A stretch of DNA of 64,000 nucleotides from an uncultured Gammaproteobacteria bacterium (GTDB lineage: Bacteria > Patescibacteriota > Microgenomatia > CAYQLK01), in contig CAYGIG010000001.1 of the NCBI GenBank assembly GCA_964349875.1, forward strand, positions 52 to 64,051, given 5' to 3'. The notes beneath the pieces were generated by a model that saw nothing but the letters and a program-made list of their open reading frames with translations, did not search any database and had not been told where the DNA came from. The first letter of the stretch is position 1; every line of letters starts with the position of its first letter. Position numbers and translations under genes: made by a program. Of the stretch, positions 18,165 through 26,352 are shown one piece after another.

Positions 18165-18257
18165 TGGCGGAGAGGGAGGGATTCGAACCCTCGGTAAGGA
18201 TTAACTCCCTACAGCGGTTTAGCAAACCACCGCACTAGGCCACTATGCGACCTCTCC
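18165..18257 (-). tRNA. tRNA-Ser (anticodon GCT), CCA encoded, long variable arm
   Basis: GGAGAGGTCGCATAGTGGCCTAGTGCGGTGGTTTGCTAAACCGC...GAGGGTTCGAATCCCTCCCTCTCCGCCA. Anticodon loop TTGCTAA. Confidence 0.85.
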
Positions 18258-18280
18258 TAATAATTCACCCTACTTAACAG

Positions 18281-18398
18281 GTCGAACAAGGTTCTCAAAC
18301 TTTAGTTTGAGGTTCTTATGCGACCTCTCCAAAATTTTTAGTCGAAAAGGCTGAACAAGAATCCAAAATAAAATTTTTGATTCTTCTGCGACCTCTCC
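18281..18398 (-). repeat. two tandem copies of a ~50-nt tRNA-Ser-5'-derived hairpin repeat (18281..18330 and 18341..18398)
   Basis: Each unit, read on the minus strand, starts GGAGAGGTCGCA(T/G)AAGAA(C/T)C, identical to the first 14 nt of tRNA-Ser. A short variable perfect palindrome follows (CTCAAACT/AGTTTGAG, or CAAAAT/ATTTTTG), then (G/A)GAA(C/T)CTTGTTCGAC. A third copy is at 26197..26248. Confidence 0.7.
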
Positions 18399-18503
18399 TT
18401 GTTGCCTATTCAGGCCGATATATTCTACCTGAGATTAACTTAAGTGTAAAAAACGAAAAAATAGTCTCGCAGAAAAAAACCTCAAGTACTACAATATTCC
18501 TAC

Positions 18504-18620
18504 GCTAAAAGCCATAATTGTTTCCCGCAAAGGCTTACCCGCAACATCAAACCTATACAAAAAAAATCAAATCAAAACTAGAAATAGTTGAGAGCAACCA
18601 AAAAGCCGATTTTATTCTTA
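18504..18620 (+). pseudogene. degenerate duplicate of the 5' end of nadK (~117 bp, ~85% identity to 25187..25305)
   Basis: gctaaaagccataattgtttcccgcaaaggcttacccgcaacatcaaacctatacaaaaaa... parallels the nadK start MLKAIIVSRKGLPTTSNLYKKIKSKLEIVESGQKADFIL. No complete ORF. Confidence 0.7.
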
Positions 18621-18630
18621 ATTTTGTCGC

Positions 18631-19203
18631 TCATATCTCAAATTCTTTTACTTCTAAGTGATTCCATGGAAACTTGCGTAACAGATCAATCACTATTCGC
18701 GGATTACTTCTCCATTCCAACATTCCCGTTAATGAGCATGCTAAATGTCTAAAAAAAGTTCCATGCGCTACCACAGCCACAGTCTTGCACCCCTTCTCTT
18801 TATCTTCGAGTAGCAGCTTGTGAAACAAAGCAGCCCTGTCTGCAATCTCTGCGTACGACTCTCCATCCTCAGGCTTCCAGTCCGGATCATATTTATCATT
18901 TTTATGATCTTCCCAAAACTGCACCAGCTCTGCCTTACTAGCGCCGATAAACCGCGATGGTCTGACGTACTCGTTTATTAGCGGTGTATAAACAACGTCT
19001 GCTCTATCTGGAAAAATTAATCCTGCCGTCTGTTTGGCCCTTATTAGCTCTGAACAATATATATTGTCAGGGTTGACTACCTCCAACTGCGCCCGCTTGA
19101 TACCCGCAATTGTTTCGTCGTCATTGACAATTGGATCCACAGTCCCTTGGACGACCTCCTCAGTCGTTTCTATCTTGGCGTGCCTTATTAAGTATATTTT
19201 CAT
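18631..19203 (-). CDS. histidine phosphatase (phosphoglycerate mutase-like) family protein
   Basis: N-terminal IYLIRHAK catalytic His motif. C-terminal AVVAHGTFFRHL second His. Confidence 0.65.
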   Translation of the reverse strand: MKIYLIRHAKIETTEEVVQGTVDPIVNDDETIAGIKRAQLEVVNPDNIYCSELIRAKQTAGLIFPDRADVVYTPLINEYVRPSRFIGASKAELVQFWEDHKNDKYDPDWKPEDGESYAEIADRAALFHKLLLEDKEKGCKTVAVVAHGTFFRHLACSLTGMLEWRSNPRIVIDLLRKFPWNHLEVKEFEI

Positions 19204-20183
19204 CCGAGTATTTGTTTGGCTTCATACATAGCTGTCAAAAGATGTTGCACACCATACTCTTCACACACAGTCGTAAAGGACTTGTCTCGCAAAAAAGCAA
19301 TACTCCGACCGATATTGTTCGCCACATATGCCGCAGTTCTGAGTTTTAAGGTCGGGTCATCTTCCTCATGTTCTTTGAGATAGTCCAAAACGCGCTGCTT
19401 GATTGCCTCAGTCGTTTCGGTCTGCCTAGGTAAAGCAGATGCAAATTCGGCCTTCTCATCCTCCACATTAGGTGAACCAATCACACCTGGAAAATCTGCG
19501 TTAAACAAATACGTCCTCGCAAAGATATTTCCCAGCACCCAAGCTAAATCATAATAACCGGCAAAACGAGCATCAATTACTTTGTAAGCGCCACTTTCCG
19601 GATCTTTGGGGACCAAAATATTGCCGAGATTTTCATCACCATGAGACAGCACCAATTGAGGAGGCTCGATTGCAAAACCTCTTTCCTGAATGTCAAAAAA
19701 CTCGTCAAGCGATCCGATATCGACCCCTCCCGTGACAATCGGTATAGCGCCAGAGACACCCAGTCTCTCTTCCGCCGCTTGCCTGAACTTTGGCATAACT
19801 CGCAAAGCGATTTCGGCATAATTTCTAATTAGTTTTTCACTCTCGAACGGTATGGCAGTCTTTTCCCACATCGAAACCAGGTCGCCAAAAAAAGCATCAA
19901 AACTCTCGACTGCTTTTTTGTCATTTTGGTTCGTCAGATCATTGACAGTCTCACTCGGACAGTACCGTACGATCAAACTCGGTCTACCGTCGATATCTAT
20001 CCGCTTGGTCGGCAACACCGACAGATAGTCTTTAATCTTTTGCCATCCGGCATACTCCTCATCGACAAACTGCGTTTTTATGACACTATTGACATGCTCT
20101 CTACCTGTATAGACGATCTCCCCCGTTGTCCCTGCTTGTTTAGATTCAAATGATCTCATCACCCTACCTATTTGCTCCGTCAT
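19200..20183 (-). CDS. phosphotransferase (APH/choline-kinase-like) family protein
   Basis: Brenner motif LSHGDENLGNILV. DARFAGYYD metal-binding segment. Confidence 0.65.
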   Translation of the reverse strand: MTEQIGRVMRSFESKQAGTTGEIVYTGREHVNSVIKTQFVDEEYAGWQKIKDYLSVLPTKRIDIDGRPSLIVRYCPSETVNDLTNQNDKKAVESFDAFFGDLVSMWEKTAIPFESEKLIRNYAEIALRVMPKFRQAAEERLGVSGAIPIVTGGVDIGSLDEFFDIQERGFAIEPPQLVLSHGDENLGNILVPKDPESGAYKVIDARFAGYYDLAWVLGNIFARTYLFNADFPGVIGSPNVEDEKAEFASALPRQTETTEAIKQRVLDYLKEHEEDDPTLKLRTAAYVANNIGRSIAFLRDKSFTTVCEEYGVQHLLTAMYEAKQILG

Positions 20184-20249
20184 ATTTACCTAATATTCTA
20201 CCACTTGTGCGAGTCTAATCTGGATCACAAGTTCTAGAACGTATTACCC

Positions 20250-25175: not shown

Positions 25176-25185
25176 TTATTAAGCA

Positions 25186-25956
25186 ATGCTAAAAGCCATA
25201 ATTGTTTCCCGCAAAGGCTTGCCCACCACATCAAACCTATATAAAAAAATAAAATCCAAACTTGAAATAGTTGAGAGCGGTCAAAAAGCCGACTTTATTC
25301 TTGTCTTGGGTGGCGATGGCGCAATGCTTAACGCTATTAACAAATATTACAAATTAAAAATTCCTTTTGCAGGTTTCAACTTCGGACATTTAGGCTTTTT
25401 ATTAAACGAAGCCAAGACTGGTGTTTTAGAAGAAATTCTTGCGGGAAAATTCGACACTGTCGAATCCAATCTGCTGGAAGCCAAACTTTATTCATTCCAT
25501 CAAAAATTAAAAACGGTCCTGGCTTTTAACGACTTTTATTTCGAGCGCAAAACACCCCAAACCGCCAGAATAGAAATATCAGTAAACGGCACCGTAAGAT
25601 TCGAAACCTTAGTCTGCGACGGCGTGATTGTTTCCTCGCCTGCCGGCTCCACCGCCTACAACGCATCGGCAGGAGGAAAAATACTCCCTATCGACAGCAG
25701 GCACATGGTTTTAACAGGCATTTGTCCGGCACTATTCCACAACTGGCGCAGCGCCCAACTCTCTCACAATTCAACAATTTGTCTAAATATTATCGACACC
25801 GAACTCCGTCCAGTGGTTTTTATGGCCGATGGTAGGGAAATAGCAGGAGTAACCAAAGCAGAAATAAAATACTCCAAACAGAAGGTCAAAATCCTCTTTG
25901 CTCGCTCCCAAGACTTTCGCGAAAAATTCCTCCGCCTCCAATTCTCTACTCTGTAA
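25186..25956 (+). CDS. nadK: NAD+ kinase
   Basis: GGDGAML motif (LVLGGDGAMLNAI). DGVIVSSPAGSTAYNASAGG NAD-binding segment. Confidence 0.9.
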   Translation: MLKAIIVSRKGLPTTSNLYKKIKSKLEIVESGQKADFILVLGGDGAMLNAINKYYKLKIPFAGFNFGHLGFLLNEAKTGVLEEILAGKFDTVESNLLEAKLYSFHQKLKTVLAFNDFYFERKTPQTARIEISVNGTVRFETLVCDGVIVSSPAGSTAYNASAGGKILPIDSRHMVLTGICPALFHNWRSAQLSHNSTICLNIIDTELRPVVFMADGREIAGVTKAEIKYSKQKVKILFARSQDFREKFLRLQFSTL

Positions 25957-26084
25957 CTAACCTAACAAGTAGAAAACGGGGACCCCACAAAATCTTTGAT
26001 TTTGAAGGGGAGAAGGAGGAATGGCGGAAACCAATTTAACTTTACGTCAGAAAAGTCTCTTGGTTGTAGTCCATTCCAACGCGG

Positions 26085-26172
26085 CGGAGGGGGAGAGATT
26101 CGAACTCTCGGAAGGAAAAAATCCTTCAGCAGTTTTCGAAACTGCCGCACTAGTCCACTATGCGACCCCTCC
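26085..26172 (-). tRNA. tRNA-Ser (anticodon CGA), long variable arm, 3' CCG instead of CCA
   Basis: GGAGGGGTCGCATAGTGGACTAGTGCGGCAGTTTCGAAAACTGCTGAAGGATTTTTTCCTTCCGAGAGTTCGAATCTCTCCCCCTCCG. Anticodon loop TTCGAAA. Confidence 0.8.
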
Positions 26173-26196
26173 AAACTAAACTAGTTTACAGTATGG

Positions 26197-26248
26197 GTCG
26201 AACAAGGTTCTTCTAATGTATAACATTAGGTTCTTATGCGACCTCTCC
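26197..26248 (-). repeat. third copy of the tRNA-Ser-5'-derived hairpin repeat
   Basis: Minus strand GGAGAGGTCGCATAAGAACCT-AATGTTATACATT-AGAAGAACCTTGTTCGAC. Same flanks as the 18281 and 18341 copies, with a different internal palindrome (CTAATGT/ACATTAG). Confidence 0.7.
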
Positions 26249-26279
26249 TAAGCAGGCTTATTCTAACAAAAAAATTTTG

Positions 26280-26352
26280 TGCGCTCGGAGGGATTTGAAC
26301 CCCCGACTTTCAGATCCGGAATCTGACGCTCTATCCACTGAGCTACGAGCGC
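26280..26352 (-). tRNA. tRNA-Arg (anticodon CCG)
   Basis: GCGCTCGTAGCTCAGTGGATAGAGCGTCAGATTCCGGATCTGAAAGTCGGGGGTTCAAATCCCTCCGAGCGCA. Anticodon loop TTCCGGA. Confidence 0.85.

Follow-up and report, generated by a model that had tools for sequence, protein, structure and literature searches.

A probable copper-gene insertion anchored in nadK and a proposed tRNA-Ser leader hairpin module, probably independent of each other, in a patescibacterial contig

The window analysed here (64 kb of DNA, nearly all of the 64.7-kb contig CAYGIG010000001.1) holds a block of copper-resistance genes between two tRNA-Ser genes, together with three copies of a hairpin unit that begins like the tRNA itself. These are probably two independent features that came to be superimposed: an insertion of the copper genes anchored in nadK, and a pre-existing hairpin module in the leaders of the tRNA-Ser genes. 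The original prediction had taken the copper segment as bracketed and possibly mobilised by the tRNA-Ser genes, with the hairpins as scars of this event. Neither part is supported: the insert ends at a duplication of nadK, the relatives L005 and L032 keep nadK between their tRNA-Ser genes, and hairpin units stand upstream of tRNA-Ser in L005, L011, L012 and L015 with no copper genes nearby (L-numbers denote contigs of relatives; L005 and L032 were reached by way of nadK). As dnaA, dnaN, yidC, dnaG and rpoD are all present in the window, the locus is chromosomal and close to the origin.

The copper segment and its boundaries in nadK

The decisive clue is a degenerate copy of the nadK 5' end, here called nadK', which the original prediction had already noticed and which is borne out by comparison with the intact gene (Table 1). 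In this 117-nt fragment, oriented like the intact nadK, the start codon ATG is changed to ACG and a 1-nt indel is found. The fragment sits behind the native nadK upstream region, a region common to L005, L006 and L008. The intact nadK begins 10 nt after the last open reading frame (ORF) of the insert and has no native upstream sequence. The ends of the insert, 18620/18621 and 25185/25186, coincide with this duplication of the nadK 5' end; the 14-nt copies of the tRNA start are located at 18244-18398 and 26159-26248.

The relatives show what the locus looks like without the insert. In L005 (NCBI GCA_039738135.1, with 75% amino acid identity in nadK), the order is DnaG, NUDIX, Cupin, tRNA-Ser(GCT) on the minus strand, one hairpin unit and nadK, followed further on by tRNA-Ser(CGA) and DUF1761. 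In L032 (80% amino acid identity in nadK), tRNA-Ser(GCT), again on the minus strand, is followed by nadK and tRNA-Ser(CGA), with neither the inserted genes nor a hairpin unit. The gene content listed earlier for the interval of the window (phosphatase, kinase-like gene, csoR-copA, HMA-permease, lipoprotein or cupredoxin-like gene, HExxH protein, nadK) is correct, and the cop module is absent between the tRNA-Ser loci of both relatives. None of the seven inserted genes is present at the L005 locus: BLAST of the window against L005 gives homology over 17166-18475 and again over 25186-25958, with nothing between. The two empty sites and the BLAST result indicate that the tRNA-Ser pair brackets nadK ancestrally and that the segment 18621-25185 is derived. 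More distant relatives, reached via nadK (up to 54% identity) and Cupin (up to 78% identity), have unrelated gene contexts. Identical copies of nadK are present in several ENA assemblies, and the homologues of nadK and Cupin, where named, belong to Patescibacteria, Parcubacteria or Brennerbacteria.

nadK' shares 88.9% identity with the nadK of the window itself; with the 5' end of nadK in the relatives, identity reaches 75% at most. Therefore, the donor belonged to the same or a very close lineage, and the fragment has probably decayed since. A nearest-relative test for a foreign donor placed nadK' and the intact nadK closest to each other, which is uninformative on the donor.

According to the relatives, the ancestral order would be Cupin and tRNA-Ser(GCT) on one side of a divergent promoter region, nadK and tRNA-Ser(CGA) on the other. 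The 6.57-kb block would have entered the lineage of the window by recombination anchored in nadK. This may have happened by a single crossover with circularised DNA carrying nt 1-117 of nadK (a Campbell-type insertion-duplication), or by homology-facilitated illegitimate recombination, the donor being a close relative in which the genes already stood upstream of nadK. The expected outcome is a decayed nadK' (nt 1-117) with the native promoter region, the insert and an intact nadK read from the insert; such an insertion would need no site-specific recombinase. Among the ORFs of at least 200 aa in the window, none showed a Phage_integrase, resolvase or transposase domain, and the absence of an integrase noted earlier is thereby upheld.

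Homology-facilitated illegitimate recombination has been described in transformable bacteria (de Vries & Wackernagel 2002, PMC122324; Prudhomme et al. 2002, PMC122325), according to PMC2884548, which cites both. Compared with this mechanism and with Campbell-type insertion, the window has the same traits: an insert beside a homologous anchor gene, flanked by a direct duplication of part of the anchor, a truncated copy that keeps the native promoter, an intact second copy and no mobile-element genes. The copper insertion is an ordinary case of anchor-gene recombination. It is an example of accessory-gene gain by an ultra-small uncultured bacterium without mobile-element machinery, for which a housekeeping gene served as the anchor, and it fits the idea that such organisms gain genes through DNA uptake and homologous recombination. 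It also calls for caution: tRNA genes that flank an accessory block do not, by themselves, prove a tRNA-targeted island.

The copper genes themselves form a standard CsoR/CopA module with clade-specific accessories. Like known CsoR-CopA copper efflux operons, the module has a CsoR-family repressor, a P1B ATPase, an HMA-domain partner and a cupredoxin-like protein. Its differences from them, all clade-specific, are the fusion of the HMA domain to a DsbD_2 permease, the HExxH ORF and its site upstream of nadK. The cassette proper has 80.8% DNA identity to L006, where it is also found immediately upstream of nadK, with other neighbours. In L039/L040 (10028-11405), genes in the order csoR-cupredoxin-copA occupy another locus, beyond rpoD and tRNA-Asn. 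Since the neighbours differ in L006 and the locus in L039, the cassette is accessory and movable within the clade. Its identity to L006 is higher than that of nadK (71.8%), but copA is a well-conserved gene in general, so that the difference is only weak evidence of exchange.

Hairpin units upstream of the tRNA-Ser genes

ARAGORN finds seven tRNA genes in the window. The two minus-strand tRNA-Ser genes of the original prediction are among them; it had set one end of tRNA-Ser(CGA) at 26085, as Rfam does. To their right are tRNA-Ser(GGA) (27298-27387), tRNA-Ser(TGA) (28362-28451) and two tRNA-Arg genes. Nucleotides 1-14 of tRNA-Ser, GGAGAGGTCGCATA, have seven matches in the window with at most two mismatches, against a chance expectation of 0.13. 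Four of the seven coincide with the starts of the four tRNA-Ser genes. The three others (18317-18330, 18385-18398 and 26235-26248) are all on the tRNA strand and lie upstream of tRNA-Ser, two at the GCT gene (73 nt away and 68 nt further on) and one at the CGA gene (76 nt). Each is followed, read on the tRNA strand, by AAGAACC, a short stem-loop and GAACCTTGTTCGACC. The elements of about 50 nt starting with the first 14 nt of the tRNA, as previously proposed, are thus real and number three: units A, B and C (Table 1).

The units fold as long imperfect hairpins, the z-scores being about -3 to -3.8 in units A and C, and -1.4 in unit B. In the A-type fold on the tRNA strand, GGAGA is unpaired and followed by stem 1 (GGTCG/CGACC), a C/T mismatch, stem 2 (ATAAG/CTTGT), an AAC/AAC internal loop, a 7-bp stem and a loop of 3-4 nt. 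The 14-nt start corresponds to the acceptor 5' strand, U8, C9 and the D-stem 5' strand of the tRNA; nucleotides 6-16 of the unit pair with the conserved CTTGTYCGACC around the AAC/AAC loop and the variable 7-bp stem. This central stem is unlike in every copy, yet complementary: CTCAAAC, CTAATGT, CTAAAGC, CTCAAGT and CTGGC. In the structural alignment of seven sequences, 94% of the cells are paired. Double changes affect five of the seven pairs of the central helix, a covariation that none of 500 shuffles reached. Six G-U pairs are found on the tRNA-sense strand, where the opposite strand would have A-C mismatches, and a role as RNA is thereby modestly favoured. The flanks and the AAC/AAC loop are nearly invariant between the window and L012, which is GC-richer and has a quite different tRNA-Ser body; they are kept across genomes in which tRNA-Ser bodies and nadK have diverged strongly. 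In the centroid fold of the CGA-locus precursor, the units form independent hairpins beside a normal cloverleaf.

A covariance model (R1), seeded with three units after one seed had received one extra loop base to equalise the length, detected A, B and C and no further unit in the 64-kb window. In Rfam 15, searched with positions 17000-29000 up to E = 1, only tRNAs were matched and none of the hairpin units. An exact-pattern scan of 185,579 species genomes returned eight matches, about the number expected by chance. Three of these are in Patescibacteria-like contigs, all directly upstream of tRNA-Ser; the five others are in GC-rich coding DNA and lack the hairpin. Per genome there are one or two matches (two in the metagenome-assembled genome CAYROP01, one in JBBUAP01), all at tRNA-Ser, so that the unit is not a dispersed repeat such as a repetitive extragenic palindrome (REP) or a miniature inverted-repeat transposable element. 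A ubiquitous element unrelated to tRNA loci, which would have spoken against the original prediction, is likewise at odds with three copies in 64 kb. A scan of JGI metagenomes yielded only a Hainich sequence that is the same as L012, the nine other matches being GC-rich chance hits, and one scan of IMG/VR gave a single chance match inside a coding region and no viral contig with the unit. Altogether, the unit is rare, restricted to the clade, tied to tRNA-Ser and independent of copper genes. Literature searches for a tRNA-leader repeat of this type retrieved nothing relevant. A covarying, 5'-derived hairpin in the leader, common to two isoacceptor genes, thus has no counterpart in Rfam and did not appear in those searches.

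The placement of the units is constant. All eight instances lie upstream of tRNA-Ser and behind a -10-like box, at 4-25 nt downstream of the box and 18-29 nt before the next unit or the mature tRNA 5' end. At the GCT locus of the window, the box belongs to a putative sigma-70-like promoter, TTTACA-17-TAGAAT, inside the divergent region that relatives, too, have in front of nadK; it is conserved in L005, L011, L032 and L036. The same motif is found at the GCT loci of L005 and L011 and at the element-free loci of L032 and L036, while TATATT in L015 and TATAAT in L012 precede the units there. Unit C, situated between tRNA-Arg(CCG) and tRNA-Ser(CGA), is preceded by TGT-TAGAAT, with the -10-like box at 26260-26265. 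Lying between such a box and the tRNA 5' end, the units are therefore expected in the tRNA-Ser precursor transcript.

The number of units at a locus is zero, one or two, and varies exactly at the 14-nt repeat. L005 has one hairpin unit at tRNA-Ser(GCT); in L011, a B-type unit, the orthologue of unit B, is the sole one before tRNA-Ser(GCT); L015 has an A-type unit before tRNA-Ser(CGA); and L012 (the real matches are listed as L012/L025) has two tandem units before tRNA-Ser(CGA). The GCT loci of L032 and L036 have none. The leader of L036, TAGAAT-ATACCAGCCTGAAAAGGTCAAAA-tRNA, is colinear with the leader before the unit in L005, TAGAAT-ATACCAGCCTTAAAAAGGCACAAAT-unit; a leader with the unit therefore differs from one without it by exactly that unit and its spacer, with the 14-nt repeat as boundary. 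In L012, the distal unit starts with the tRNA variant of its own genome, GGAAGGG, and the two spacers are nearly identical, which indicates a recent unequal exchange. One unit type, which L005 has at its GCT locus, recurs at the CGA locus of the window and of L015, so exchange between paralogous tRNA-Ser genes must have occurred. The idea of gene conversion between tRNA-Ser paralogues, offered earlier as a second reading, thus survives in part, for the exchange between the GCT and CGA loci.

More generally, tRNA-Ser genes are located at rearrangement breakpoints in every relative examined. In L008/L011 and in L036, they are oriented differently with respect to nadK or Cupin; genes for TspO, 8xMP and glyoxalase intervene in L008 and L039; and tRNA-Ser(CGA) is inverted relative to the window in L005, L009, L029 and L032. 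In spirit, these observations support active recombination among paralogous tRNA-Ser loci in this clade.

Table 1. Coordinates of the features discussed, with strand and supporting evidence
Feature	Position	Strand	Evidence
tRNA-Ser(GCT), CCA encoded	18165-18257	-	ARAGORN; Rfam tRNA, 53 bits
Leader hairpin unit A: 14-mer GGAGAGGTCGCATA, AGAACC, 7-bp variable stem, GAACCTTGTTCGACC	18280-18330	-	Covariance model, 81.6 bits; fold z -3.8
Leader hairpin unit B, divergent subtype, AAGAATC/GATTCTT stem fully paired	18349-18398	-	Covariance model, 39.9 bits
Predicted sigma-70-like promoter TTTACA-17-TAGAAT, towards units B, A and tRNA-Ser(GCT)	18422-18450	-	Consensus scan, 10/12
nadK' pseudogene fragment, codons 1-39, left direct repeat	18503-18620	+	88.9% identity to 25186-25303
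Inserted segment, 6.57 kb	18621-25185		No counterpart in the empty sites of L005 and L032; BLAST
His_Phos_1	18631-19203	-	Pfam
APH-like 327-aa ORF, HGDxxxxN motif	19200-20183	-	Translation
Copper cassette proper, csoR-copA-HMA/DsbD-cupredoxin	20323-24401	+	BLAST against L006 886-4963
csoR	20373-20648	+	PF02583, 8.9e-23
copA, Cu-type P1B ATPase with HMA domain	20650-22965	+	TIGR01511, 603 bits (cutoff 397)
HMA+DsbD_2	22970-23989	+	Pfam/NCBIfam
Cupredoxin-like	24018-24398	+	Pfam/NCBIfam
HExxH 247-aa ORF, HETTH	24432-25175	+	Translation
Intact nadK; first 117 nt are the right direct repeat	25186-25956	+	Pfam NAD_kinase
tRNA-Ser(CGA)	26083-26172	-	ARAGORN; Rfam match begins at 26085
Leader hairpin unit C, A-type, central stem CTAATGT/ACATTAG	26196-26248	-	Covariance model, 58.6 bits
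tRNA-Arg(CCG), upstream neighbour of unit C on the same strand	26279-26352	-	ARAGORN

Alternative readings of the tRNA-Ser repeats

It is very improbable that the copper genes were brought by an integrative element targeting tRNA-Ser, with the hairpin copies as leftover att sites and the integrase lost; for the window, this scenario is already largely refuted. As in tRNA-gene-linked islands, a short direct repeat of a tRNA end, resembling an att core, adjoins a variable region, here the interval between tRNA-Ser(GCT) and nadK. Moreover, a ~170-nt insert of the relatives (see below) has copies of the 3' end of tRNA-Ser on both sides, and the cargo of L006 starts right after ...CTCCGC of tRNA-Ser, so the tRNA-Ser genes are genuine recombination sites in the clade. 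However, it is nadK repeats that delimit the copper insert, 220 nt past the last 14-mer, and its right end carries no tRNA-derived repeat. In none of the genomes seen does cargo lie between unit copies, units occur as well in genomes that lack the copper genes, and neither an integrase among the window's ORFs of at least 200 aa nor a viral contig with the unit in IMG/VR was found. Islands of this kind, as Williams reportedly described in 2002, normally duplicate the 3' part of the tRNA, whereas the repeats here derive from the 5' part. Covariation of the hairpin is also unexpected of decaying scars.

A mobile origin of the unit alone is improbable too. The ~70-bp unit (hairpin, spacer and 14-mer) would be a miniature non-autonomous module homing to nucleotide 14 of tRNA-Ser genes by means of a recombinase acting in trans; this enzyme would recognise the conserved flanks of the hairpin in single-stranded, folded DNA, as happens with attC or with IS200/IS605 ends. 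Presence and absence are exact at the 14-bp direct repeat, copies are found at two different tRNA-Ser genes and in tandem, and they are scattered patchily among close relatives. From the window to the distant, GC-richer L012, the flanks GGTCGCATAAGAACCT...AGAACCTTGTYCGACC hardly change, while the centre varies and stays paired, as in attC. An imperfect hairpin whose base-proximal arms are conserved and whose terminal stem-loop varies, with bulges or an internal loop, is a shape shared with attC, REP and IS200-IS605 hairpins. Unlike these, the units depart from the R-box consensus of attC (RYYYAAC/GTTRRRY, by inspection), have no associated integrase, RAYT or TnpA, and occur in only one to three copies per genome, strictly in tRNA-Ser leaders. 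The window offers no candidate enzyme, the G-U pairs favour an RNA of the tRNA strand, and unequal crossover with gene conversion would yield the identical pattern without any enzyme.

That the units are functionless debris, namely slippage duplications of leader and tRNA 5' end, or internally deleted tRNA-Ser pseudogenes, whose palindromy is maintained by DNA-level processes, is unlikely as well. They start with nt 1-14 of the tRNA and end with TTCGAC, reminiscent of the T-loop; the central stem-loop has the size of the variable arm of tRNA-Ser; and several relatives have lost the units. Partial tRNA duplications in gene flanks are known elsewhere: E. coli tyrT has 178-bp tandem repeats, each with the last ~19 nt of tRNA-Tyr. 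There, as here, tandem units in the flank carry a piece of the adjacent tRNA and change in copy number via unequal recombination, but the tyrT repeats are 3'-derived and downstream, whereas the present units are 5'-derived, covary, and belong to the leaders of two isoacceptors in several genomes. Debris would not be expected to conserve non-tRNA flanks and the AAC/AAC loop across strongly diverged genomes, to show compensatory changes in five of seven central pairs, or to persist despite a built-in deletion route.

The preferred reading of the hairpins is, therefore, a cis-acting, transcribed leader module under structural selection and spread by homologous exchange, as the pattern of the units leads us to infer. 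It would be a lineage-specific module serving as 5' leader or spacer of the tRNA-Ser precursor transcripts, its structure being kept by selection, most likely at the RNA level and on the tRNA-sense strand, and it would presumably be cut away at tRNA 5' maturation. Because unit and gene share 14 nt, it could expand, contract and disappear by unequal recombination between the 14-mers, and it may have passed between GCT and CGA genes by gene conversion via the shared 5' part of the tRNA. Judged from the genomes compared, the hairpin units predate the copper insertion. Candidate roles are a processing or stability signal, or the sequestering of a tRNA-complementary leader segment. A bolder proposal is possible but rather doubtful: the unit as a new functional tRNA-Ser element of a Patescibacteria subclade, either a leader RNA (controlling pre-tRNA folding or 5' processing, or mimicking tRNA-Ser for a protein) or a self-restoring module of ~70 bp homing to position 14. 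If functional, the hairpins would add a small novelty to what is known of tRNA biogenesis or regulation in Patescibacteria; if not, they illustrate neatly how tRNA paralogues evolve in concert.

Several points weigh against this picture of an anchored copper insertion beside a selected leader module. The insertion is deduced from one genome and two empty sites, and no contig carrying His_Phos to HExxH and nadK was found outside the population of the window itself. With the donor missing, the left junction 18620/18621 is uncheckable for microhomology, and Campbell-type insertion is inseparable from homology-facilitated illegitimate recombination. The 11% divergence of the two nadK copies could be decay after the insertion or divergence of the donor. 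As for the hairpins, only eight instances from about four genomes are available, the structural alignment was fitted to a model with one edited loop base in its seed, subtype B and unit 1 of L012 fit the structure less well, and the promoters are consensus matches only. In the minimum-free-energy fold of the GCT precursor, the upstream GGAGAGG pairs with the 3' strand of the tRNA; the basal stem of the hairpin may therefore occupy a decoy strand. A leader copy of the acceptor 5' strand could, on the same models, equally be harmful. Finally, the persistence of a unit that is so easily lost via its 14-nt repeat is hard to explain without a function, and this argument pinpoints none.

Some known elements were tried as explanations of the hairpins and rejected. 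Integron attC sites do not match, as GTCGCAT...GTTCGAC is off RYYYAAC...GTTRRRY by inspection, and the window has no integrase. A terminator is excluded by the lack of a T-run after the hairpins on either strand, the lone terminator-like match on the plus strand being weak-tailed. The 3' arm CTTGTTCGACC would serve poorly as the -35 box of a promoter for the tRNA: from locus to locus, neither the spacing nor the candidate -10 boxes agree, and L012 has none. GGTCGCATAA resembles the XerC arm of E. coli dif, but the TTATGT arm of a dif/Xer-like site is missing and the spacing is wrong. A viral attP was dropped too, since IMG/VR gave only the chance match in a coding region.

Further observations in the window and its relatives

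Other sequences are associated with the tRNA genes. A conserved element of ~170 nt, with three hairpins, lies within the tRNA-Ser 3' ends of relatives, right after ...CTCCGC, and is absent from the window. It was located in L005 (3152-3345, minus strand, and 4784-4977, plus strand), L029 (14-197) and L011 (~150-341, minus strand), the last being identical to L008 7-232. The proximal tRNA has no encoded CCA, and at the distal end of the element, the tRNA 3' end is repeated over 17-18 nt, CCA included; from its sequence, it looks like a miniature att-flanked insert. In the window, a 17-nt fragment of a tRNA-Ser 3' end, TGGCGGAGAGGAGGATT, is found at 27263-27279, 18 nt downstream of tRNA-Ser(GGA), and tRNA-Ser(GCT) and tRNA-Ser(GGA) have the 3' trailer GTCTCYTTAGAGTGTC in common. 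A conserved sequence of ~90 nt (28180-28272) stands directly upstream of tRNA-Arg(GCG). Its relatives in L005 (4442-4532 and 4996-5079), L008 (2171-2263) and L009 (2009-2101) are upstream of tRNA-Ser(CGA), with 85-91% identity across genomes. Rfam has no match for this sequence, which may represent a small RNA or a further shared leader.

The metagenome-assembled genome CAYROP01, which includes L011 (CAYROP010000030.1) and L015 (CAYROP010000007.1), is labelled 'uncultured Gammaproteobacteria'. Its tRNA-Ser loci are nearly identical to those of the clade of the window, and L011 matches the Patescibacteria-like contig L008 over 226 nt with 100% identity. Probably, either the label or the binning is in error.

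At a distance of some 20 kb from the studied locus (46385-51334), a PrgI-family protein and a TraG/VirB4-like P-loop ATPase are followed by an M23 peptidase protein of 1160 aa, which suggests a type IV secretion-like or DNA-transfer cluster. Finally, a stretch of 1.8 kb between dnaG and the NUDIX gene (~15390-17166) has a GC content of 57-58% within a genome of ~40%. It encodes a 330-aa ORF with no Pfam match, the first ~60 nt of which are repeated just upstream, and has no Rfam match. The stretch is kept in L036 and L039 with 75-79% identity, and in L005, 336 nt are found in its place.

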